Assembly (NCBI RefSeq): GCF_016026235.1
Contig: NZ_CP065613.1
Length of the DNA stretch: 64,000 nucleotides
Source of the DNA: Escherichia coli
Lineage (GTDB): Bacteria > Pseudomonadota > Gammaproteobacteria > Enterobacterales > Enterobacteriaceae
Strand: one strand, 5' to 3'
Each line of letters begins with the position of its first letter. The first letter of the stretch is position 1. The translations under genes and the position numbers were made by a program. A model generated the notes under the pieces. It was given only the letters and a program-made list of their open reading frames with translations. It searched no databases and had not been told where the DNA came from. Below are positions 11,064 through 64,000 of the stretch, in pieces.

Positions 11064-12014
11064 ATGAACGAGTTAGACGGCATCAAACAGTTCACCACTG
11101 TCGTGGCAGACAGCGGCGATATTGAGTCCATTCGCCATTATCATCCCCAGGATGCCACCACCAATCCTTCGCTGTTACTCAAGGCTGCCGGATTATCACA
11201 ATATGAGCATTTAATAGACGATGCTATCGCCTGGGGTAAAAAAAATGGCAAGACCCAGGAACAACAGGTGGTCGCAGCGTGTGACAAACTGGCGGTCAAT
11301 TTCGGTGCTGAAATCCTCAAAATCGTACCCGGTCGCGTGTCAACAGAAGTTGATGCACGCCTCTCTTTTGATAAAGAAAAGAGTATTGAGAAGGCGCGCC
11401 ATCTGGTGGACTTGTATCAGCAACAAGGCGTTGAGAAATCACGCATTCTGATCAAGCTGGCTTCGACCTGGGAAGGAATTCGCGCGGCAGAAGAGCTGGA
11501 AAAAGAAGGTATTAACTGCAACCTGACGCTGCTGTTTTCTTTTGCACAGGCACGGGCCTGTGCGGAAGCAGGCGTTTTTCTGATTTCGCCGTTTGTCGGG
11601 CGTATTTATGACTGGTATCAGGCACGCAAACCGATGGACCCGTATGTGGTGGAAGAAGATCCGGGCGTTAAATCGGTGCGCAATATCTACGACTACTATA
11701 AGCAACACCACTATGAAACCATTGTGATGGGCGCGAGCTTCCGTCGCACCGAACAAATCCTCGCCTTAACCGGCTGCGATCGACTGACTATCGCACCGAA
11801 TTTGCTGAAGGAGGTGCAGGAAAAAGTTTCGCCAGTGGTACGTAAATTAATCCCACCTTCTCAGACGTTCCCACGCCCAGCTCCCATGAGCGAAGCGGAG
11901 TTCCGTTGGGAGCACAATCAGGATGCGATGGCGGTAGAAAAACTGTCTGAAGGCATTCGTCTGTTCGCCGTTGATCAACGCAAACTGGAAGATCTTCTTG
12001 CCGCCAAACTATAA
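11064..12014 (+). CDS. talA: Transaldolase A
   Basis: 316-aa ORF, transaldolase family; immediately upstream of tktB. Confidence 0.92.
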
Positions 12015-13131
12015 ACCAGCCACGGAGTGTTATATGTCCCGAAAAGACCTTGCCAATGCGATTCGCGCACTCAGTATGGATGCGGTACAAAAAGCCAATT
12101 CTGGTCATCCCGGCGCGCCGATGGGCATGGCTGATATTGCCGAAGTGCTGTGGAACGATTTTCTTAAACATAACCCTACCGACCCAACCTGGTATGATCG
12201 CGACCGCTTTATTCTTTCCAACGGTCACGCGTCGATGCTGCTCTACAGTTTGCTACATCTGACCGGTTACGACCTGCCGCTGGAAGAACTGAAGAACTTC
12301 CGTCAGTTGCATTCGAAAACCCCTGGCCACCCGGAAATCGGCTATACGCCCGGTGTTGAAACCACCACCGGTCCACTTGGACAAGGTTTGGCGAACGCCG
12401 TCGGACTGGCGATAGCAGAGCGTACACTGGCGGCGCAGTTTAACCAGCCGGATCATGAAATTGTCGATCACTTCACCTATGTGTTTATGGGCGACGGCTG
12501 CCTGATGGAAGGTATTTCCCACGAAGTCTGTTCGCTGGCGGGCACGCTGGGACTGGGCAAGCTGATTGGTTTTTACGATCACAACGGTATTTCGATTGAT
12601 GGAGAAACCGAAGGCTGGTTTACCGACGATACGGCAAAACGTTTTGAAGCCTATCACTGGCATGTGATCCATGAAATCGACGGTCACGATCCGCAGGCGG
12701 TGAAGGAAGCGATCCTTGAAGCGCAAAGCGTGAAAGATAAGCCGTCGCTGATTATCTGCCGTACGGTGATTGGCTTTGGTTCGCCGAATAAAGCAGGTAA
12801 GGAAGAGGCGCACGGCGCACCACTGGGGGAAGAAGAAGTGGCGCTGGCACGGCAAAAACTGGGCTGGCACCATCCGCCATTTGAGATCCCTAAAGAGATT
12901 TATCACGCCTGGGATGCCCGCGAAAAAGGCGAAAAAGCGCAGCAGAGCTGGAATGAGAAGTTTGCCGCCTATAAAAAGGCTCATCCGCAACTGGCAGAAG
13001 AGTTTATCCGTCGGATGAGCGGTGGTTTACCGAAGGACTGGGAGAAAACGACTCAGAAATATATCAATGAGTTACAGGCAAATCCGGCGAAAATCGCTAC
13101 CCGTAAGGCTTCGCAAAATACGCTTAACGCT

Positions 13132-13396
13132 GATATGACTTTCCGTGTCAAACCGGAATCTCTAATTTTGACGATTTTCTTTTTAGGTTTAATTCCCTGA
13201 GGGCGACGTAGCAGTAAATCCGACGGTGAATCACGCTGATATTCGCGGGTTGGATACCGCATTACAGAGGTCCGTCATATGAGCCTGCCACTTTCTTACG
13301 TCGCGAATCAGCTTTGTTCCGCCGTCGCCAAGCGCTAACGTGGGTTACTCTTGTACCGGGCTACGTCGCCTTCAGGGAACTGGTTATTCTCATTTT
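13132..13396 (-). ncRNA. Candidate structured non-coding RNA (bridge/seek-type guide RNA) in the 3' non-coding region of the IS110-family element
   Basis: No credible ORF; long-range inverted repeat CCCTGAGGGCGACGTAGC (13195-13212) pairs with GCTACGTCGCCTTCAGGG (13360-13377) at 17 of 18 positions; strand and exact ends not determined. Confidence 0.3.
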
Positions 13397-14524
13397 TTAT
13401 TTGTGACATTGTGGTTGTTGTGCGACAGACATTGCTATTCGGCCCATATCCCAGATAAAACCCGCCAGCTCACGTGCAACAGCAACAATTGTAATATTGA
13501 CATTCTTTCCTTTGGCCTGAAGTTTTCGATACCTCTTACAAAGCCTGAGTTGAGCATCCCATGCTCTGTCAATGACGGGGCGGGGTAAATTTTCCTGCCT
13601 TTTTTGTATTGCCGGACTGATGCGTGCCGGATGACGGTAACTCCACGCTGCCTCGACCAATAGCTTTCTGGCATAGCTGTTTCCGGCTTTGGTAATGCTG
13701 CCCTGATGTCTGCTTCCACCCGATGAATATTCTGATGGCGTGATACCAAACCATGACATCAGTTGTCGTGGATGTTCAAAACGGGTCAGATCACCCAGTT
13801 CAGAAATTAATCCAACCGCAGTAATAAACTGAATCCCTCGCATGGCTTGCAGCGCCTCTACTACCGGATACAGCCTCCATTCGGTAACGGCCTCCTTCAG
13901 GGCGGATTCCAGCCGTTCACATTGTGCCTGCCGGTCTTCTATTGTACGACGGTGTTCGTCAAAAGCTAATTGTCGCCAGGGACTTTCGAATGAGTATTTG
14001 CTGAGCCAGCGTCGGTGTGCAGGGCCCCAATCTGCTCGCCCGACATAATGGACCCCATGAACCAGAAGAAACGATTTCAGACGTTGCCTTGCATGCCGTA
14101 AATCATCGCGGGCAGATGCCCATGCCCGGGCCAAATCCCGGAATGCCTCATCTTCAATGCCGGGTACGTAGACAGCAGAAAGATCTCCTGCACGCAGTGA
14201 ACGCACAAGTCTGATGGCATCACGGCGATCGGTTTTAACCCGCTCCCCCGGTTTTTTCGGGATAAGTGAGGGGGCGCAGACCATGCAGTCAAAACCGGAT
14301 TTCACCAGCCGACGATAAAGTCCATAACCACAGGGCCCCGCTTCATAAACGATACTGACCTGCGATGACTTTGACCTGAGACGTTTACAAAGATTCTGAA
14401 TATCAGTAGGTGATGTGCCAATTTTACCCATCAGTTCAACAGGTTCTGAATTGATAGCATAAGCGACAGTAATCGATTCTTTGTGAACATCTAACCCGAC
14501 GTACAATGTGTTATTGTTGTTCAT
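13397..14524 (-). CDS. IS110-family (DEDD) transposase/recombinase, 375 aa
   Basis: ORF track 13397..14572; start assigned at MNNNNTLYVGLDVHK; RuvC-like acidic motifs (LYVGLDVHK, VYEAGPCGY, KTDRRDA) and a C-terminal GITPSEYSSGGS...SITKAGNSYARK region. Confidence 0.85.
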   Translation of the reverse strand: MNNNNTLYVGLDVHKESITVAYAINSEPVELMGKIGTSPTDIQNLCKRLRSKSSQVSIVYEAGPCGYGLYRRLVKSGFDCMVCAPSLIPKKPGERVKTDRRDAIRLVRSLRAGDLSAVYVPGIEDEAFRDLARAWASARDDLRHARQRLKSFLLVHGVHYVGRADWGPAHRRWLSKYSFESPWRQLAFDEHRRTIEDRQAQCERLESALKEAVTEWRLYPVVEALQAMRGIQFITAVGLISELGDLTRFEHPRQLMSWFGITPSEYSSGGSRHQGSITKAGNSYARKLLVEAAWSYRHPARISPAIQKRQENLPRPVIDRAWDAQLRLCKRYRKLQAKGKNVNITIVAVARELAGFIWDMGRIAMSVAQQPQCHK

Positions 14525-15559
14525 GCTGGCCTCCGTGGTGGAAATACCGGGGTGTAGCAACAGCTCACCCATGCGGCTCTGACAACGATGTTAACCCGCG
14601 TTAAATATCCCACGTTGGCCAGCATCTGTCTCACGGAAAGTCATACTGCCTTACGGGCCGATGCTACCGGAGCTGCTCGGCGGTTCGGCGGATCTGGCTC
14701 CCAGCAACCTGACCATCTGGAAAGGTTCTGTTTCGCTGAAGGAAGATCCGGCGGGCAACTACATTCACTACGGGGTGCGTGAATTTGGCATGACCGCTAT
14801 CGCCAACGGCATTGCGCACCACGGCGGCTTTGTGCCGTATACCGCAACGTTCCTGATGTTTGTTGAATACGCCCGTAACGCCGCGCGGATGGCGGCACTG
14901 ATGAAAGCGCGGCAGATTATGGTTTATACCCACGACTCAATTGGTCTGGGCGAAGATGGTCCGACGCACCAGGCTGTTGAGCAACTGGCCAGCCTGCGCT
15001 TAACGCCAAATTTCAGCACCTGGCGACCGTGCGATCAGGTGGAAGCGGCGGTGGGCTGGAAGCTGGCGGTTGAGCGCCACAACGGACCGACGGCACTGAT
15101 TCTCTCCAGGCAGAATCTGGCCCAGGTGGAACGTACGCCGGATCAGGTTAAAGAGATTGCTCGTGGCGGTTATGTGCTGAAAGACAGCGGCGGTAAGCCA
15201 GATATTATTTTGATTGCCACCGGTTCAGAGATGGAAATCACCCTGCAAGCGGCAGAGAAATTAGCGGGAGAAGGTCGCAATGTTCGCGTAGTTTCCCTGC
15301 CCTCGACCGATATTTTCGACGCCCAGGATGAGGAATATCGGGAGTCGGTGTTGCCTTCTAACGTTGCGGCTCGCGTGGCGGTGGAAGCAGGTATTGCCGA
15401 TTACTGGTACAAGTATGTTGGTCTGAAAGGGGCAATTGTCGGGATGACGGGTTATGGGGAATCTGCTCCGGCGGATAAGCTGTTCCCGTTCTTTGGCTTT
15501 ACCGCCGAGAATATTGTGGCAAAAGCGCATAAGGTGCTGGGAGTGAAAGGTGCCTGATG

Positions 15560-15597: not shown

Positions 15598-16456
<859 letters not shown>

Positions 16457-16481
<25 letters not shown>

Positions 16482-16978
16482 TTCTCCAGCTCCTGGCGCT
16501 TTTTTTCCAGGAGATGCTCCTGCATGGCTTTCAGATATGCATTTTCTGCGCGAAGATAACGCAGCTCATTCTTCATCTCTTCCGGCGTCATGTTTCCCTC
16601 GTTTTCATGGGTATCATTAGAACGGGTCATGCTTTTCTCCTTCCTGCGCCTGATAAAGGCCTCATTACCAGATTTGCGGTAGCCTTTTATCCAGTTTTTA
16701 ACCATGTTGTGGCTGGGAATGTTAAACCGGGCAGCTACCCGGGGTAGAGACTCAGAATGCCCGAGAGCATAAAGAACCACGCAAAGTTTATCTTCAGGAG
16801 AATAGCTACGCTTGTGTCTGCAATCCAGTGCCTGAGGACCGTGAAGAAGAAAAAGATTAATCCAGTGTGAGAGGCTGGTGTGAGAAAGTTGAAAGAGTTT
16901 TGCCGTAGAAATGATGCCTGCATGACCGGCCAGGTAATGATTTACAGCGGCAAGTTTTACTTCAAATGAATGTTTCAT
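16457..16978 (-). CDS. insJ: IS150 OrfA (InsJ), helix-turn-helix DNA-binding protein
   Basis: 173 aa starting MKHSFEVKLAAVNHYLAGHAG; leucine-zipper-like C-terminus. Confidence 0.88.
16499..16505 (-). other. Probable programmed -1 ribosomal frameshift heptamer A-AAA-AAG in the IS150 orfA/orfB overlap
   Basis: Reverse-strand CTG GAA AAA AAG CGC near the end of orfA, with orfB open in the -1 frame. Confidence 0.55.
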
Positions 16979-17029
16979 AAACTGCACCTTCAGATGTCAG
17001 ATTATGTCCAACATTTGGGGTGCAGTTCA

Positions 17030-20880: not shown

Positions 20881-21085
20881 AACGACCTTCTTTTTTGGTT
20901 GTAAAAACCTTATTCTTTATATGAGTGTTGTTATTACCCGACTTACAGGGGAATCGGCAATGTTCATGTGCCCAGAATAAGTAACTATTTCGCTATAAAC
21001 TGTGGCAGATCAAATAATCCCATCATTGACTAAATTGCGTTTCAGCGAACTGGAACATTAATGATTTTTTGTGGAGAAGACGCGT

Positions 21086-22786
21086 GTGATTGTTAAACGA
21101 CCCGTCTCGGCCAGTCTGGCCCGGGCCTTTTTTTACATTGTGCTGCTGTCGATTCTTTCCACGGGTATCGCTCTGCTAACTCTGGCGAGCAGTTTGCGCG
21201 ACGCTGAGGCTATCAATATTGCCGGATCGCTGCGTATGCAGAGTTACCGCCTGGGCTACGACTTGCAAAGTGGCAGTCCACAACTCAATGCACATCGCCA
21301 GCTGTTTCAGCAGGCACTGCATTCACCGGTATTAACCAATCTCAACGTCTGGTATGTGCCAGAAGCAGTAAAAACTCGCTATGCGCATCTGAATGCCAAC
21401 TGGCTGGAGATGAATAATCGTCTCAGCAAGGGCGACTTGCCGTGGTATCAGGCCAATATTAATAACTATGTTAATCAGATAGACCTGTTCGTGCTGGCTT
21501 TACAGCACTACGCTGAACGCAAAATGCTGCTGGTGGTGGCGATTTCCCTAGCTGGCGGCATCGGTATTTTCACGCTGGTCTTTTTTACTTTGCGCCGCAT
21601 ACGCCATCAGGTGGTTGCCCCGCTGAATCAGCTGGTTACCGCCAGTCAGCGTATTGAACACGGGCAGTTCGACTCGCCGCCGCTGGATACCAGCCTGCCG
21701 AATGAGCTTGGTCTGCTTGCAAAAACCTTTAACCAGATGTCGAGCGAGCTGCATAAATTGTACCGTTCGCTGGAGGCGTCAGTAGAAGAAAAGACTCGCG
21801 ATCTCCACGAGGCCAAGCGTCGTCTGGAGGTGTTGTATCAATGTTCGCAGGCGCTGAACACCAGCCAGATTGATGTGCATTGTTTCCGCCATATTTTGCA
21901 GATTGTTCGCGACAATGAAGCGGCTGAATATCTGGAGTTAAATGTCGGTGAAAACTGGCGGATTAGCGAAGGGCAACCAAACCCGGAATTGCCGATGCAG
22001 ATTTTACCGGTGACAATGCAAGAGACGGTTTACGGCGAACTGCACTGGCAAAATAGTCACGTTTCATCATCAGAACCGCTGCTTAACAGCGTTTCGTCGA
22101 TGCTGGGACGCGGTTTGTACTTTAATCAGGCGCAGAAGCATTTTCAGCAGTTATTGTTGATGGAAGAACGTGCAACCATCGCCCGCGAATTGCACGACTC
22201 GCTGGCTCAGGTACTTTCTTACTTACGTATCCAGTTGACGTTACTTAAGCGTTCGATACCGGAAGATAACGCCACCGCACAAAGTATCATGGCCGATTTT
22301 TCCCAGGCGTTGAATGATGCTTATCGGCAGTTACGCGAGCTGTTGACTACTTTCCGCCTGACGCTGCAGCAGGCGGATCTCCCCTCCGCGTTGAGGGAAA
22401 TGCTGGATACGTTACAAAATCAAACCAGCGCCAAACTGACCCTCGACTGCCGTCTGCCAACCCTGGCGCTGGATGCGCAAATGCAGGTGCATTTGTTGCA
22501 AATTATTCGCGAAGCGGTGCTGAATGCGATGAAGCACGCCAACGCCAGCGAAATCGCCGTCAGTTGCGTCACCGCGCCGGACGGCAATCACACGGTTTAT
22601 ATCCGTGATAACGGGATTGGTATCGGTGAACCGAAAGAACCCGAAGGTCATTATGGTCTGAATATCATGCGCGAACGCGCGGAACGGCTAGGTGGGACGC
22701 TGACTTTTTCACAACCTTCCGGCGGCGGCACGTTAGTGAGTATTAGCTTTCGCTCTGCGGAGGGTGAGGAAAGTCAGTTGATGTAA
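21086..22786 (+). CDS. narQ: Nitrate/nitrite sensor histidine kinase NarQ
   Basis: ORF track 21071..22786; probable GTG start at 21086 (MIVKRPV) gives 566 aa; two transmembrane segments, HAMP and histidine kinase (ELHDSLAQ) regions. Confidence 0.88.
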   Translation: MIVKRPVSASLARAFFYIVLLSILSTGIALLTLASSLRDAEAINIAGSLRMQSYRLGYDLQSGSPQLNAHRQLFQQALHSPVLTNLNVWYVPEAVKTRYAHLNANWLEMNNRLSKGDLPWYQANINNYVNQIDLFVLALQHYAERKMLLVVAISLAGGIGIFTLVFFTLRRIRHQVVAPLNQLVTASQRIEHGQFDSPPLDTSLPNELGLLAKTFNQMSSELHKLYRSLEASVEEKTRDLHEAKRRLEVLYQCSQALNTSQIDVHCFRHILQIVRDNEAAEYLELNVGENWRISEGQPNPELPMQILPVTMQETVYGELHWQNSHVSSSEPLLNSVSSMLGRGLYFNQAQKHFQQLLLMEERATIARELHDSLAQVLSYLRIQLTLLKRSIPEDNATAQSIMADFSQALNDAYRQLRELLTTFRLTLQQADLPSALREMLDTLQNQTSAKLTLDCRLPTLALDAQMQVHLLQIIREAVLNAMKHANASEIAVSCVTAPDGNHTVYIRDNGIGIGEPKEPEGHYGLNIMRERAERLGGTLTFSQPSGGGTLVSISFRSAEGEESQLM

Positions 22787-36498: not shown

Positions 36499-36514
36499 TG
36501 GCATCCTTTATGCA
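36499..36514 (+). promoter_or_regulatory. Sigma-54 (-24/-12) promoter for the hyf operon
   Basis: TGGCAT-N7-TGCA with correct GG/GC spacing, about 40 bp upstream of the hyfA ATG; hyf encodes its own sigma-54 activator HyfR. Confidence 0.65.
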
Positions 36515-36555: not shown

Positions 36556-37173
36556 ATGAACCGCTTTGTGGTGGCCGAACCACTGTGGTGTACAGGATGT
36601 AATACCTGTCTCGCTGTCTGTTCGGACGTGCATAAAACGCAAGGTTTACAGCAACACCCGCGCCTGGCCCTGGCGAAGACGTCAACACTCACTGCCCCTG
36701 TCGTGTGTCATCACTGTGAGGAAGCCCCTTGCCTGCAGGTCTGCCCGGTCAATGCCATCTCCCAGAGGGATGATGCGATCCAACTCAACGAAAGCCTCTG
36801 TATTGGCTGCAAGCTTTGCGCCGTGGTCTGCCCATTTGGCGCAATCAGCGCTTCAGGAAGCCGTCCGGTGAATGCCCCTGCGCAATATGTTTTTCAGGCT
36901 GAAGGCTCACTCAAAGACGGCGAAGAAAACGCGCCAACACAACATGCTTTGCTGCGCTGGGAACCGGGTGTCCAGACCGTCGCGGTGAAATGCGACCTGT
37001 GTGATTTCTTGCCAGAAGGTCCGGCCTGCGTTCGCGCTTGCCCGAATCAGGCGTTACGGCTGATCACCGACGATAGCCTGCAACGTCAGATGAAAGAAAA
37101 ACAGCGCCTTGCCGCAAGCTGGTTTGCCAATGGCGGGGAGGATCCCCTTTCCCTCACTCAGGAGCAACACTAA
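36556..37173 (+). CDS. hyfA: Hydrogenase-4 component A, 4Fe-4S ferredoxin-type
   Basis: 205-aa ORF with multiple CxxCxxCxxxCP motifs. Confidence 0.9.
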   Translation: MNRFVVAEPLWCTGCNTCLAVCSDVHKTQGLQQHPRLALAKTSTLTAPVVCHHCEEAPCLQVCPVNAISQRDDAIQLNESLCIGCKLCAVVCPFGAISASGSRPVNAPAQYVFQAEGSLKDGEENAPTQHALLRWEPGVQTVAVKCDLCDFLPEGPACVRACPNQALRLITDDSLQRQMKEKQRLAASWFANGGEDPLSLTQEQH

Positions 37174-39195
37174 TGGATGCCCTGCAATTATTAACCTGGT
37201 CGCTGATCCTCTATCTGTTTGCCAATCTGGCTTCGCTGTTTTTACTCGGTCTGGACAGACTGGCTATTAAGCTTTCCGGCATCACATCGCTGGTGGGCGG
37301 CGTGATTGGCATCATCAGCGGAATTACGCAATTACATGCTGGTGTAACTTTAGTCGCCCATTTTGCCACCCCTTTTGACTTTGCCGATTTAACCCTGCGA
37401 ATGGATAGCCTCTCGGCATTTATGGTGCTGGTTATCTCCTTGCTGGTGGTGGTTTGTTCGCTCTATTCATTGACTTATATGCGCGAATACGAGGGCAAAG
37501 GCGCGGCGGCGATGGGCTTCTTTATGAATCTTTTCATCGCATCGATGGTTGCCCTGCTGGTGATGGACAACGCTTTTTGGTTCATCGTGCTGTTTGAAAT
37601 GATGTCGCTGTCTTCCTGGTTTCTGGTCATTGCCAGGCAGGATAAAACGTCGATCAACGCTGGCATGCTCTACTTTTTTATCGCCCACGCCGGATCGGTG
37701 CTGATTATGATCGCCTTCTTGCTGATGGGGCGCGAAAGCGGCAGCCTCGATTTTGCCAGTTTCGCACGCTTTCACTTTCTCCGGGGCTGGCGTCGGCGGT
37801 GTTTCTGCTGGCCTTTTTCGGTTTTGGCGCGAAAGCCGGGATGATGCCGTTGCACAGCTGGTTGCCGCGCGCTCACCCTGCCGCACCATCGCACGCTTCG
37901 GCGTTGATGTCTGGCGTAATGGTCAAAATCGGTATTTTCGGCATCCTGAAAGTAGCGATGGATCTGCTGGCGCAAACGGGTTTGCCTCTGTGGTGGGGCA
38001 TTCTGGTGATGGCGATCGGCGCAATCTCCGCGCTCCTGGGCGTGCTATATGCGCTGGCGGAACAGGATATCAAACGGCTGCTGGCCTGGAGTACCGTCGA
38101 AAACGTCGGCATTATTTTGCTGGCAGTCGGTGTGGCGATGGACGGTCTGTCACTGCACGACCCGCTGCTCACCGTGGTTGGACTGCTCGGCGCACTGTTT
38201 CATCTGCTCAACCATGCGCTGTTCAAAGGGCTGCTATTTCTCGGCGCGGGCGCGATTATTTCGCGTTTGCATACCCACGACATGGAAAAAATGGGGGCAC
38301 TGGCGAAACGGATGCCGTGGACAGCCGCAGCATGCCTGATTGGTTGCCTCGCGATATCAGCCATTCCTCCGCTGAATGGTTTTATCAGCGAATGGTACAC
38401 CTGGCAGTCGCTGTTCTCACTAAGTCGTGTGGAAGCCGTAGCGCTACAACTTGCGGGTCCTATTGCTATGGTAATGCTGGCAGTCACTGGTGGGCTGGCA
38501 GTAATGTGCTTCGTAAAAATGTACGGTATTACTTTCTGTGGTGTGGTGCGCCGCGCAGTACACACGCTGAAGAGGCACAGGAAGTGCCAAATACGATGAT
38601 CGTCGCCATGCTACTGCTCGCGGCACTCTGCGTATTAATTGCGCTTAGTGCCAGTTGGCTGGCACCGAAGATAATGCATATTGCCCATGCGTTTACCAAT
38701 ACCCCTCCCGTCACTGTCGCCAGCGGAATAGCACTTGTACCCGGCACGTTTCATACACGGGTCACTCCTTCATTACTGTTGCTGTTACTACTGGCGATGC
38801 CTTTGCTGCCTGGCCTTTACTGGCTGTGGTGTCGTTCGCGCCGCGCAGCGTTTCGTCGCACAGGAGATGCCTGGGCATGCGGCTACGGCTGGGAAAATGC
38901 GATGGCCCCGTCAGGCAATGGCGTGATGCAGCCGCTGCGTGTGGTCTTTTCTGCGCTATTTCGTCTACGACAACAGCTCGACCCTACGCTGAGGCTAAAT
39001 AAAGGTCTTGCGCACGTCACCGCCAGGGCTCAGAGCACAGAACCCTTCTGGGATGAGCGGGTGATCCGCCCCATCGTGAGCGCCACCCAACGGCTGGCCA
39101 AAGAAATACAGCATCTGCAAAGCGGCGACTTTCGTCTCTATTGCCTGTATGTGGTCGCCGCACTGGTTGTGCTGCTAATCGCTATTGCCGTCTAA
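37173..39195 (+). pseudogene. hyfB: Hydrogenase-4 membrane subunit HyfB, disrupted by two frameshifts
   Basis: Three consecutive ORF segments in frames 0, 2 and 1 (37173..37844, about 37760..38547, about 38548..39195); total 2023 nt, which equals a 673-codon gene minus 1 plus 5. Confidence 0.8.
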
Positions 39196-40169: not shown

Positions 40170-41608
40170 ATGGAAAATCTTGCTCTGACGACGTTATTGC
40201 TGCCTTTTATCGGCGCACTGGTCGTTTCGTTTTCGCCACAACGTCGGGCCGCCGAATGGGGGGTTTTGTTCGCCGCGCTGACCACGCTGTGCATGTTGTC
40301 GCTGATCTCCGCGTTTTATCAGGCCGATAAAGTTGCCGTCACGTTGACGTTGGTCAACGTGGGGGATGTGGCATTGTTTGGCCTGGTCATTGATCGCGTG
40401 AGTACGCTGATTCTGTTTGTGGTGGTGTTTCTCGGTTTGCTGGTCACGATCTACTCCACGGGTTATCTGACGGATAAAAATCGCGAACACCCGCATAACG
40501 GCACGAATCGTTATTACGCATTTTTGCTGGTGTTTATCGGCGCGATGGCGGGACTGGTACTCTCCTCGACGCTGCTCGGTCAGTTGTTGTTTTTTGAAAT
40601 TAGGGCGGCTGCTCCTGGGCGTTGATCAGTTATTACCAGAGCGATAAAGCGCAGCGTTCAGCACTAAAAGCGTTGCTTATCACCCATATCGGTTCGTTGG
40701 GGTTGTATCTTGCCGCCGCCACGCTGTTTTTGCAGACCGGAACGTTTGCGCTTAGCGCAATGAGCGAGTTACACGGCGACGCACGTTATCTGGTTTATGG
40801 CGGGATCCTGTTTGCCGCGTGGGGGAAATCGGCCCAGCTACCGATGCAAGCGTGGCTACCGGATGCAATGGAAGCGCCAACACCGATCAGCGCCTATCTC
40901 CACGCCGCATCGATGGTGAAAGTGGGCGTTTACATTTTTGCCCGCGCAATTATCGACGGCGGCAATATCCCGCATGTGATTGGCGGCGTTGGCATGGTCA
41001 TGGCACTGGTCACCATTCTTTATGGCTTTCTGATGTATTTGCCACAGCAGGATATGAAGCGGTTGCTGGCCTGGTCGACCATCACTCAACTTGGCTGGAT
41101 GTTCTTCGGCTTGTCGCTCTCCATCTTCGGCTCGCGGCTGGCGCTGGAGGGTAGCATCGCCTACATCGTCAACCACGCGTTCGCTAAAAGCCTGTTTTTC
41201 CTTGTAGCAGGTGCGCTGAGTTACAGCTGCGGCACGCGCTTGTTGCCGCGTCTGCGTGGCGTATTGCACACCCTGCCGTTGCCAGGCGTGGGTTTCTGCG
41301 TGGCAGCGCTGGCGATTACCGGCGTGCCGCCGTTCAACGGCTTCTTCAGTAAATTCCCGCTGTTTGCTGCCGGTTTTGCGTTGTCAGTGGAGTACTGGAT
41401 CCTGCTGCCCGCCATGATTCTGCTGATGATTGAATCGGTCGCCAGTTTCGCCTGGTTTATTCGCTGGTTTGGTCGCGTTGTGCCTGGCAAACCGAGCGAG
41501 GCCGTCGCCGATGCCGCACCGCTGCCAGGGTCAATGCGCCTGGTGTTGATTGTACTGATTGTGATGTCGCTGATTTCCAGCGTAATCGCCGCGACCTGGT
41601 TGCAGTAA
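40170..41608 (+). pseudogene. hyfD: Hydrogenase-4 membrane subunit HyfD, disrupted by one frameshift
   Basis: Two ORF segments (40170..40625 and 40622..41608) in different frames; total 1439 nt, which equals a 480-codon gene minus 1. Confidence 0.8.
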
Positions 41609-47257: not shown

Positions 47258-49269
47258 ATGGCTATGTCAGACGAGGCGATGTTTGCCCCGCCGCAAGGAA
47301 TAACAATTGAAGCGGTAAACGGAATGCTCGCGGAGCGGTTAGCGCAGAAACACGGCAAGGCGTCTTTATTACGCGCCTTCATCCCGCTGCCGCCGCCGTT
47401 CAGCCCGGTACAACTTATTGAACTGCATGTTCTCAAAAGCAACTTCTATTACCGCTACCATGATGATGGCAGCGATGTGACGGCAACAACAGAGTATCAG
47501 GGCGAGATGGTCGATTATTCGCGTCACGCCGTCCTTCTCGGCAGTAGTGGAATGGCGGAGCTACGCTTTATTCGTACCCACGGCAGCCGTTTTACTCCCC
47601 AGGATTGCACACTGTTTAACTGGCTGGCACGCATTATCACTCCGGTTCTGCAATCATGGCTCAATGATGAAGAACAACAGGTGGCGCTGCGTTTGCTGGA
47701 GAAAGATCGCGATCATCATCGGGTACTGGTTGATATTACTAATGCAGTGCTGTCACATCTTGATCTCGACGATCTGATCGCTGACGTCGCTCGTGAGATC
47801 CATCATTTTTTCGGTCTGGCTTCAGTCAGTATGGTACTGGGCGATCATCGAAAGAACGAGAAGTTTAGCCTGTGGTGCAGCGATCTTTCTGCCTCACATT
47901 GTGCGTGTCTGCCACGCAATATGCCTGGCGACAGTGTATTGCTGACACAAACGCTACAAACCCGACAACCGACCTTGACGCACCGTGCAGACGTCTGTTT
48001 CTCTGGCAACGCGACCCGTTATTACTCTTACTTGCATCTAACGGCTGCGAATCTGCGCTCCTTATACCGCTTACCTTTGGCAACCATACACCGGGTGCAT
48101 TGTTGCTGGCGCATACCTCTTCCACTCTCTTTAGTGAGGAAAACTGCCAGCTACTACAACACATAGCCGATCGCATCGCTATTGCCGTTGGCAATGCCGA
48201 TGCCTGGCGTAGAATGACCGATTTGCAGGAAAGTTTGCAGCAAGAAAACCACCAGCTTAGCGAGCAGCTCCTTTCGAATCTGGGCGTCGGTGACATTATC
48301 TATCAAAGCCAGGCAATGGAAGACCTACTCCAGCAGGTAGATATTGTGGCGAAGAGCGACAGTACGGTGTTGATTTGCGGTGAAACCGGAACCGGCAAAG
48401 AGGTGATCGCCAGAGCGATCCATCAACTTAGCCCGCGACGCGACAAGCCGCTGGTCAAAATCAACTGCGCTGCCATCCCCGCCAGTCTTCTGGAAAGTGA
48501 GTTATTCGGTCATGACAAAGGAGCGTTTACTGGTGCGATTAATACCCATCGTGGTCGTTTTGAAATTGCCGATGGCGGCACGTTGTTTCTCGATGAAATT
48601 GGCGATCTGCCGTTAGAACTTCAGCCTAAACTGCTGCGCGTATTGCAGGAACGGGAGATTGAGCGTCTCGGCGGGAGTAGAACGATCCCGGTAAATGTCA
48701 GAGTCATTGCCGCCACCAACCGTGATTTGTGGCAAATGGTTGAAGATCGCCAGTTTCGCAGCGATCTCTTTTATCGCCTGAATGTCTTCCCACTGGAATT
48801 GCCGCCGCTGCGCGACCGTCCGGAAGATATCCCTCTTTTAGCAAAGCATTTCACGCAAAAAATGGCGCGCCATATGAATCGTTCAATTGACGCCATCCCG
48901 ACCGAGGCGCTACGCCAGTTGATGTCGTGGGACTGGCCGGGCAACGTGCGCGAGCTGGAAAACGTGATTGAGCGAGCGGTACTGCTGACTCGCGGTAACA
49001 GTCTGAATTTACATCTTAATGTCCGACAAAGCCGTTTACTGCCGACGCTAAATGAAGATTCAGCGCTTCGCAGTTCAATGGCGCAGTTGCTGCACCCGAC
49101 GACGCCAGAGAATGACGAAGAAGAACGTCAGCGCATTGTTCAGGTATTGCGAGAAACCAATGGCATTGTTGCCGGGCCCCGTGGCGCGGCGACACGATTA
49201 GGGATGAAGCGCACCACGCTGCTGTCACGAATGCAGCGTCTGGGGATCTCGGTTCGCGAGGTGTTGTAA
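47258..49269 (+). pseudogene. hyfR: Sigma-54-dependent activator HyfR (GAF + AAA+ + HTH), disrupted by one frameshift in the GAF region
   Basis: Two overlapping ORF segments in different frames (47255..48166 and 47872..49269); total 2012 nt, which equals a 671-codon gene minus 1; the downstream segment has the sigma-54 activator motifs GETGTGKE and GAFTGA. Confidence 0.8.
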
Positions 49270-62050: not shown

Positions 62051-64000
62051 TCAGGCACTTTCGCGAATGGGTTCGATTTCATTCAACGTATCAATTAACG
62101 GCTGCGGCTTACCAATAAGATAACCCTGCATATAATCGATCCCCAAAGAGAGCACCGCCTCGCGGATCTCTTCGTTTTCAACGTACTCTGCCACTACCCG
62201 CATTTTCTTCATTCGCGCCAGGTGGCAAATCGATGCCACTATCTGATAATCCAGACTATTTGACACAATATTGCGGATAAAACTGCCGTCAATTTTAAGC
62301 AGATCGGCATTCACATTTTTAAGCCGTGCATAGCTGGCGTAGCCGGTGCCGAAATCATCAATCGCAATCTGGCAGCCTAATTCCTGAAGATGCTGCAAGG
62401 TGATTTGCGCCTGCTTAACATTGGTCAGAGCATTACTTTCGGTGACTTCAAAAATAAGTTGCCACGCTTCAATCTGATATTTAGCCAGCAACTGACTGAC
62501 TTCAACAGGAAAACGAGCCTGACATACCGAGGTTGGAGACAGATTAATAGCAAAACGGTGAGCGGGCATCTTCGCTCTGTTTTCAGCCATAAATTGCAGC
62601 GTATGCTCAATGACCCACATGTCGATACTCGACGATAAACCAAATTCGTGCGCGACCGGCAAGAAGCTATCGGGGCCGATCAGTTCATCATTCTCACCTT
62701 TCATGCGCAGAAGAATTTCATGGTAAACATCACCACGCATACCGGTAATCGGCTGGGCCATCAGGAAAAAATGGTTGTGTTCCAGCGCCTGCTGTAGTCG
62801 ATTCATCATCGCGACTTTATCTTTCAATTCGCGTTGCAAATACATTGCCCCGCGACGCTGCATATTTTCCGGGGCGTTGGTCACGATGGAAAGTTCGGCG
62901 ACCGTATTTAGCTCTCCCAGCAGCAGGTAGATATGATTCACTGGCGAGCGCACATAGCAGTAACTGACGCCAATCTGCGGTTGCATCGGCATGCCATCCC
63001 AAAAGAAACGAAATTGCTTGAGATGGCTATCCAGTGCGGTAATGCGCTCCTGGTGCGATTCTGTATTCAGTCGCAGCGCGAGATCGTTACCCGAAAGCTG
63101 ATAAACATCTTCACCCGGTTCCAGCAAGGGTGACAGCCAGTGAGAAAGTTTTTGCTTGTATTGAATCCGCAGCATGATGCCATAGTTCTTAACCAGCATT
63201 TCCATGCCAGGGATGCGTAAATAACAAAGCGCAGACCAGGGGGCATCACGCAACGCGCGATTCAGGGCGCGAACATTTGGCAGATGAACCACCGGGTCCA
63301 CATACGCAAGCCGCTGAATGCGTCTGACTACCGCTCTCTGACGGGTTGCCAGTACAGCCATATAATTGACAATAAAAGAGAATACCAGATAACTGGAGGA
63401 GGTTATGGTCAGCTGCGTGGTATAGCCAGGATAAATGGGAATGTAATTTTGATAGCTGTGGATGCTGATCATCAACACGACCGCCCAGAGCAGCGAAATC
63501 AGCTTATAACCATAGCGCATCGCTCCCCACATCATCAGGGGCAGCAATAATGACAAGGTATAATTGGTGCTAAAAATTGTGCTTTTTTCATTTAACGGCA
63601 TGCATAACAGCAACAATAAAGCACCTAATGCCAGTAGCCAGAGCGCGAACTCTTTTTTGGTGACTTTGGCATCAACCTGCTGTTTTAATTGCGAATAATA
63701 GCTACGTAAATAAAATGGATTTCGCACTACCCGAATGATGAAGTAGCACAGCGGGACACCGATCAGATTACCCACCAGTAAGGCCTGATAATTGATTAAA
63801 GTCCCGAGGTTAAAAGGCATGACACCGACCAGATTTTCTCTGCTCGCCAATAATCCTACAAATGCAGCAAACTGGAAAAGTATCAGAAACAGCGTTGCAG
63901 GAAACACAATCTGCCAGAATATACGCTGGGAAATTAAACGGGTATCACCATGTGAAACGTTGTTACGCCGGGGAGTAAAGACCCTGTAACCGCCCCAACA
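62051..64000 (-). CDS. pdeF: Cyclic-di-GMP phosphodiesterase PdeF (YfgF), 3' 649 codons; the 5' end lies beyond the window
   Basis: ORF track 62051..63907 (618 aa from an internal GTG); the frame stays open to position 64000; C-terminal EAL domain and N-terminal transmembrane MASE-like region. Confidence 0.85.
   Translation of the reverse strand, partial: CWGGYRVFTPRRNNVSHGDTRLISQRIFWQIVFPATLFLILFQFAAFVGLLASRENLVGVMPFNLGTLINYQALLVGNLIGVPLCYFIIRVVRNPFYLRSYYSQLKQQVDAKVTKKEFALWLLALGALLLLLCMPLNEKSTIFSTNYTLSLLLPLMMWGAMRYGYKLISLLWAVVLMISIHSYQNYIPIYPGYTTQLTITSSSYLVFSFIVNYMAVLATRQRAVVRRIQRLAYVDPVVHLPNVRALNRALRDAPWSALCYLRIPGMEMLVKNYGIMLRIQYKQKLSHWLSPLLEPGEDVYQLSGNDLALRLNTESHQERITALDSHLKQFRFFWDGMPMQPQIGVSYCYVRSPVNHIYLLLGELNTVAELSIVTNAPENMQRRGAMYLQRELKDKVAMMNRLQQALEHNHFFLMAQPITGMRGDVYHEILLRMKGENDELIGPDSFLPVAHEFGLSSSIDMWVIEHTLQFMAENRAKMPAHRFAINLSPTSVCQARFPVEVSQLLAKYQIEAWQLIFEVTESNALTNVKQAQITLQHLQELGCQIAIDDFGTGYASYARLKNVNADLLKIDGSFIRNIVSNSLDYQIVASICHLARMKKMRVVAEYVENEEIREAVLSLGIDYMQGYLIGKPQPLIDTLNEIEPIRESA

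Follow-up and report, generated by a model that had tools for sequence, protein, structure and literature searches.

A single-base deletion in hyfR of a small Escherichia coli lineage as probable neutral decay in an already broken hyf operon

The hyfR gene in the window, the 64,000-nucleotide stretch of Escherichia coli DNA analyzed here, lacks one base in the codon for Asp246. It is very probably a true pseudogene that has decayed neutrally within a hyfABCDEFGHIJR-focB operon that was already broken. A sequence-only reading of the window had pointed to a frameshift in this gene, placed it in the GAF-domain region between positions 47960 and 48000, and considered the activator of the operon probably non-functional. 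The lesion was already known: the RefSeq entry of FDAARGOS_943 (NZ_CP065615.1), a sister strain, flags hyfR as frameshifted, and its PGAP label reads "DNA-binding transcriptional regulator HyfR, frameshifted". No paper on this allele was found in a literature search for hyfR pseudogenes. The gene, its lesion, and its product in the natural frame are located as follows.

47258..49269, + strand: hyfR pseudogene of 2012 nt, delimited by the PGAP annotation of the near-identical NZ_CP065615.1 and by alignment to K-12 and STEC711.
47993..47994, + strand: the lesion, with the A of GAT (Asp246) absent between both bases, placed by pairwise alignments and codon numbering.
47258..48166, + strand: truncated natural-frame product of 302 aa, consisting of 245 native and 57 out-of-frame residues, by translation.

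The order hyfA-J, hyfR, focB is the same in the window as in K-12, and hyfR occupies its position at the 3'-end of the operon between the end of hyfJ (47228) and focB (49291). An intact hyfR measures 2013 nt (670 codons and a stop), which agrees with the earlier count of a 671-codon gene minus one base. In alignments with STEC711, K-12, and six further loci, the gene showed a single 1-nt gap. Where intact hyfR of STEC711 and K-12 has GCAGACGATCTG, the window reads GCAGACG-TCTG; the letters at the lesion itself thus change from GACGATCTG to GACG-TCTG, and the missing A destroys a Dam site (GATC). The alignment with intact hyfR that had been proposed as a check has therefore pinned the indel to 47993/47994, within the interval first suggested.

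Relative to the intact orthologues, the gene carries an indel that is not a multiple of three and that leads to a premature stop. From the ATG at 47258, the natural frame (frame A) runs to ...TRQPTLTHRAD, continues into an unrelated tail, VCFSGNATRYY..., and ends at a TAG (48164-48166). The second frame (frame B) is open from 47872 to 49269, and its translation includes ...RRLFLWQRDPLLLLLASNGC... and ...LFLWQRDPLLLLLASNGC..., so the change of frame after TRQPTLTHRAD was described correctly. Frames A and B overlap openly over 295 nt (47872-48166). When the A is re-inserted, the gene encodes a 670-aa protein, the exact sequence of which is known from 269 public contigs.

The repaired protein, the 302-aa product, and the frame-B ORF were compared with Pfam. 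The coding regions of the three principal domains are the following.

47762..48189, + strand: GAF coding region, residues 169-311 of the repaired protein (Pfam GAF, E = 2.7e-13), split by the frameshift.
48295..48795, + strand: Sigma54_activat (AAA+), intact in the shifted frame (Pfam, E = 2.5e-75), residues 142-308 of the frame-B ORF.
49117..49239, + strand: Fis-type HTH in the shifted frame (Pfam HTH_8), residues 621-661 of the repaired protein.

Codon 246 falls within the GAF domain, as the sequence-only reading had it. The 302-aa natural-frame product matched no Pfam family above threshold, and frame B obtained a GAF score from the C-terminal half of the domain only. The continuity between GAF and AAA+ is thus lost, the GAF domain being recognized solely after the base is restored. 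In the repaired protein, the AAA+ domain spans residues 347-513, the lid 519-585, and the HTH 621-661. Frame B contains Sigma54_activat, AAA_lid_14, and HTH_8, and both the Walker A motif GETGTGKE and the GAFTGA loop of a sigma-54 activator are readable in it. The HTH_8 match is marginal (21.0 bits against a gathering cut-off of 22, E = 2.8e-4), and its sequence is identical to that of intact HyfR. No stops or obvious damage were found in the AAA+/HTH frame. The Pfam results thus bear out that the AAA+ and HTH domains lie together in one frame and are cut off from the natural start.

The in-frame starts available to this second frame appear weak. Their predicted Shine-Dalgarno pairing ranges from -1.5 kcal/mol (ATG at 48214) to -4.3 kcal/mol (the best, TTG at 48235); for the twelve hyf and focB starts and those of the upstream bcp and gcvR, it ranges from -5.1 to -9.2 kcal/mol. 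From the split of the domains and the weak internal starts, we infer that activator function has been lost, so the earlier assessment of a probably non-functional activator appears reasonable. A low level of N-terminally truncated activator may still be made.

The closest known counterpart is HyfR of K-12 (b2491, NP_416986.4), the sigma-54-dependent activator of hyf (hydrogenase-4), which is found at the same position (hyfJ-hyfR-focB), has the same length as the repaired protein (670 aa), and shows the same order of GAF, AAA+, and HTH. The gene in the window differs from it by a few amino-acid substitutions and by the one base missing in codon 246, which leaves it in two frames. Among curated families, the formate hydrogenlyase activator FhlA (NF011958) scored best, with 642.6 bits across the repaired protein's residues 101-668, and it has its architecture in common with HyfR. 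The score lies below the FhlA equivalog cut-off (830 bits), and the first ~130 model positions are unmatched; the repaired protein is therefore a paralogue and not FhlA itself. FhlA's N-terminal domain is believed to be the formate sensor (PMC11291172), and PMC7384014 presents HyfR as an FhlA-related, formate-sensing activator. In Pectobacterium, deletion of hyfR resulted in very low FHL-2 activity (PMC7384014).

The loss of hyfR has to be viewed against the state of the other hyf genes, two of which are also broken in the window.

37173..39195, + strand: hyfB pseudogene, in which a -1 deletion lies at 37762/37763 and 5 bp (TGTGG) are duplicated at 38537-38541; the ORF stops after 223 of 672 aa.
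40170..41608, + strand: hyfD pseudogene, interrupted by a -1 deletion at 40602/40603, with an ORF of 151 of 479 aa.
36499..36514, + strand: -24/-12 sigma-54 promoter-like element 5' of hyfA, CTGGCATCCTTTATGC, with a core identical to K-12.

The lesions in hyfB and hyfD were defined relative to K-12, and the remaining nine genes are full length. The exact 61-mer context of the hyfB -1 deletion was present in 1256 of the 4292 complete E. coli genomes compared; for the hyfD -1 deletion, this applied to 352 of 4047. The TGTGG duplication in hyfB, like the hyfR deletion, occurs among complete genomes only in FDAARGOS_943. Since the -1 deletions in hyfB and hyfD are widespread and that in hyfR is rare, some of the hyfB and hyfD lesions are older than the one in hyfR. 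This distribution suggests a stepwise decay of hyf with hyfR among the latest lesions; the nesting of the hyfB, hyfD, and hyfR genome sets was spot-checked among the matches listed.

The control region of the operon is well preserved at the sequence level. The promoter-like element was located through direct alignment with K-12, in which its TGGCAT-N5-ATGCA sequence is identical, and the bcp-hyfA intergenic region shows 4 substitutions in 252 bp relative to K-12, none of them in the GG-N10-GC core. A strict sigma-54 scan (TGGCAC-N5-TTGCW, at most one mismatch) gave zero matches upstream of hyfA, and its matches were no commoner than expected by chance.

In K-12, hydrogen production by Hyd-4 was undetectable even when hyf was placed under hyc or T5 promoters (PMC7654741). 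As hyfB and hyfD are already frameshifted in the window and hyf is inactive in K-12 (PMC7654741), stressing the lost activator would overstate the consequence of the deletion. On the same grounds, the loss of hyfR was presumably neutral. The repeated, independent decay of hyf in different E. coli lineages, described below, agrees with the published failures to detect Hyd-4 activity in K-12 and suggests that the operon is under weak selection in E. coli. A polar effect of the hyfR lesion on focB is possible.

A megablast search with the gene covered 5,426 complete E. coli genomes and located hyfR in 4297 of them. One genome, FDAARGOS_943, had the same 2018-nt span; the 29 other matches listed had a 2019-nt span each at 99.3-99.4% identity. 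Likewise, a 61-mer over the lesion was exact in one of 4286 complete genomes, again FDAARGOS_943; the other 4285 had less than 99% identity to it, and the seven listed each matched at 98.4% over a 62-base span. The exact 302-aa product is known from at least 24 contigs, spread over 29 blocks, of independent origin in NCBI and Logan; among them are a Logan assembly made from the reads of SRR13627082, the draft assembly GCA_001907565.1, and the GenBank proteins CAD7363577.1 and STM06463.1. An intact hyfR in independent data from the same lineage would have spoken against the frameshift, and the truncated product was found instead.

The window, FDAARGOS_943, SRR13627082, and GCA_001907565.1 all carry the deletion. 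Across 6.9 kb surrounding hyfR, 1-3 SNPs separate these sequences from each other. The deletion is thus reproduced in at least four distinct sequences and on at least 24 contigs, with this support coming from sister assemblies. Compared with FDAARGOS_943, the window shows ~28 substitutions, almost all of them transitions, together with a narQ indel of 4 bp, an insertion of an IS of ~1.5 kb, and a duplication of ~100 bp. As the deletion occurs in assemblies that have diverged by SNPs, it is an inherited allele of a small lineage. Loci L009-L014 encode an identical intact HyfR and are 0.7-1.1% divergent in DNA; given this divergence, they are not the immediate intact ancestor, and the age of the lesion is not derivable from them.

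Three other accounts of the interrupted frame were weighed against the pseudogene. One is that hyfR is really intact and that the A was dropped through a consensus error, such as a long-read miscall where a GATC is methylated. Such an error would be in keeping with the location of the lesion inside a GATC Dam site and with the annotation of FDAARGOS_943, in which hyfB, hyfD, hyfR, and narQ are all called frameshifted within the same 64 kb. It would, however, have had to arise identically in the four or more SNP-distinct sequences, including the Logan assembly SRR13627082 and GCA_001907565.1, and to give the exact truncated protein on 24 or more contigs. The hyfB and hyfD -1 contexts, moreover, are common to hundreds of genomes, the 4-bp insertion in narQ is confined to FDAARGOS_943 and absent from the window, and the lesion site is no homopolymer. 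We therefore regard an artefact as extremely improbable. A programmed or reversible event that brings back full-length HyfR in a fraction of molecules or cells, be it ribosomal frameshifting, transcriptional slippage, or phase variation, is next to impossible. The two frames are both open across the 295 nt of their overlap (47872-48166), and nothing further speaks for it. An X XXY YYZ heptamer was not found in this overlap, and the two-frame arrangement is not conserved as programmed frameshifts are, being missing from 4285 of the 4286 complete genomes that have the stretch. The site GACGTCTG (context GCAGACG^TCTGTTT) contains neither a homopolymer nor a short or tandem repeat at which a phase-variable indel could be placed, and a single frame of the intact allele encodes this same protein.

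The remaining account is that the deletion has created a constitutive activator. Gene callers predicted a 351-aa ORF with an internal ATG (48214..49269, + strand; loci L005 and L006) that comprises the AAA+ and HTH parts only. This ORF is intact. Its alignment with the FhlA model runs from position 355 to 690 and takes in AAA+, lid, and HTH, and its ATG lies just 48 nt past the premature stop. Re-initiation at 48214, or nearby, after the TAG at 48164 could therefore yield a HyfR without its sensory N-terminus. According to earlier work cited in PMC11291172, FhlA without its N-terminal domain is said to direct constitutive, formate-independent transcription. We nevertheless judge a constitutive activator of this kind, whose action on sigma-54 promoters carrying FhlA/HyfR sites would need no formate, to be very unlikely. 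The pairing at 48214 is the weakest of the internal starts, at -1.5 kcal/mol, and in the operon that such a protein would activate, hyfB and hyfD are already broken. The hyfR genes of other lineages break elsewhere, including in or after the start of AAA+ (a 391-aa allele), which fits loss of the gene and not a selected truncation. By analogy with FhlA, low-level re-initiation at 48214 might by chance produce an FhlA-C-like protein, that is, a constitutive, formate-independent AAA+/HTH HyfR active on hyf and possibly on hyc/fdhF, and we give this a slimmer chance still. If true, fermentative hydrogen and formate metabolism would be altered in the lineage, beyond the mere loss of a regulator.

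The evidence is best explained by ordinary loss of the gene. One base, the A in the GAT codon of Asp246, was lost in a forebear of the small E. coli lineage that carries the allele. Translation that begins at the natural start now leaves its frame in the middle of the GAF sensor and stops 57 codons on, giving a 302-aa fragment without the ATPase domain and without the DNA-binding domain. The coding sequence for AAA+ and HTH is still intact but has no good start of its own, so that little or no activator would be made. The deletion is fixed in the lineage and was inherited through the later divergence by SNPs. It struck an operon already non-functional through the older frameshifts in hyfB and hyfD and is best read as neutral decay, with selection relaxed, in an IS-rich strain that is probably Shigella/EIEC-like. 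As a case of ordinary gene decay, the finding carries little weight beyond correct annotation. In studies of hydrogen or formate physiology in this strain, HyfR or Hyd-4 function should not be expected. The hyfR deletion also serves as a clean allelic marker of this small, probably EIEC/Shigella-like E. coli lineage.

Decay of hyfR has occurred elsewhere as well. A 327-aa nonsense allele is found on 126 contigs, and further independent alleles encode products of 335, 360, and 391 aa. Isolates labeled S. flexneri carry another independent -1 deletion, which also gives a 302-aa product, ~9 codons further downstream, after ...DLFLWQRDP. As in the window, these E. coli and Shigella pseudogene alleles lie at the syntenic locus and encode a truncated N-terminal product, but their lesions are at other positions, which indicates an independent origin. 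Across lineages, hyfB, hyfD, hyfF, hyfI, and hyfR have been hit, and judged from these sequences the hyf operon seems to decay independently in many E. coli lineages.

Loci L009-L014 show a different set of interruptions in the operon. Examples among them are a -1 deletion in hyfI at the position matching 46411 of the window (HyfI called as 173 aa), hyfF called as two ORFs (209 and 309 aa), hyfB indels near 37783 and 38228, and, in hyfD, an indel unlike that of the window, located in a G-run near 40258. Some of the G-run indels of these loci could be assembly errors.

Other parts of the window fit a Shigella/EIEC-like background that is rich in IS elements and accumulates pseudogenes. An ISSso6 element (IS110-like, ~13125-14655, with a 391-aa transposase on the - strand) lies inside a transketolase gene (tkt, next to tal) and splits it into ORFs at 11971-13200 and 14661-15557. 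In FDAARGOS_943 the transketolase gene is intact, and 13 places elsewhere on the chromosome match ISSso6. Matches to the element also include strain CFSAN029787, which we take to be an EIEC strain. An IS3-family element (15626-16990, - strand) is present in both strains between ypfG and the transketolase gene, and its two ORFs are annotated with a programmed frameshift in FDAARGOS_943. The window thus resembles known pathoadaptive or neutral gene decay in IS-rich Shigella and EIEC in its ISSso6 and IS3-family elements, which also occur in Shigella and EIEC, its IS-disrupted transketolase gene, and its several frameshifted genes. Unlike the known cases, hyfR is no described pathoadaptive target.

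Three further observations concern genes and sequences outside the hyf region. The narQ gene is one intact ORF in the window (21071-22786), while that of FDAARGOS_943 has four extra bases (CTTA) at window site 22218 and is annotated as frameshifted; the sets of broken genes therefore differ between the two strains. For pdeF (62051-64000), the annotation of FDAARGOS_943 is incomplete with the N-terminus missing, and by coordinates the missing end lies just outside the window. In the eutG-eutH intergenic region (~540-722), a segment of ~83-100 bp is present twice in the window and once in FDAARGOS_943, which may reflect copy-number variation of a repetitive extragenic element.

Finally, hyfR contains a cluster of Dam sites, with 8 GATC in 180 bp (47705-47882). 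The gene as a whole has 16, corresponding to ~8 per kb compared with 4 per kb across the window, and hyfR was among the GATC-cluster genes of a 2004 paper (PMC493266). The GATC lost to the frameshift lies ~110 bp downstream of the cluster.
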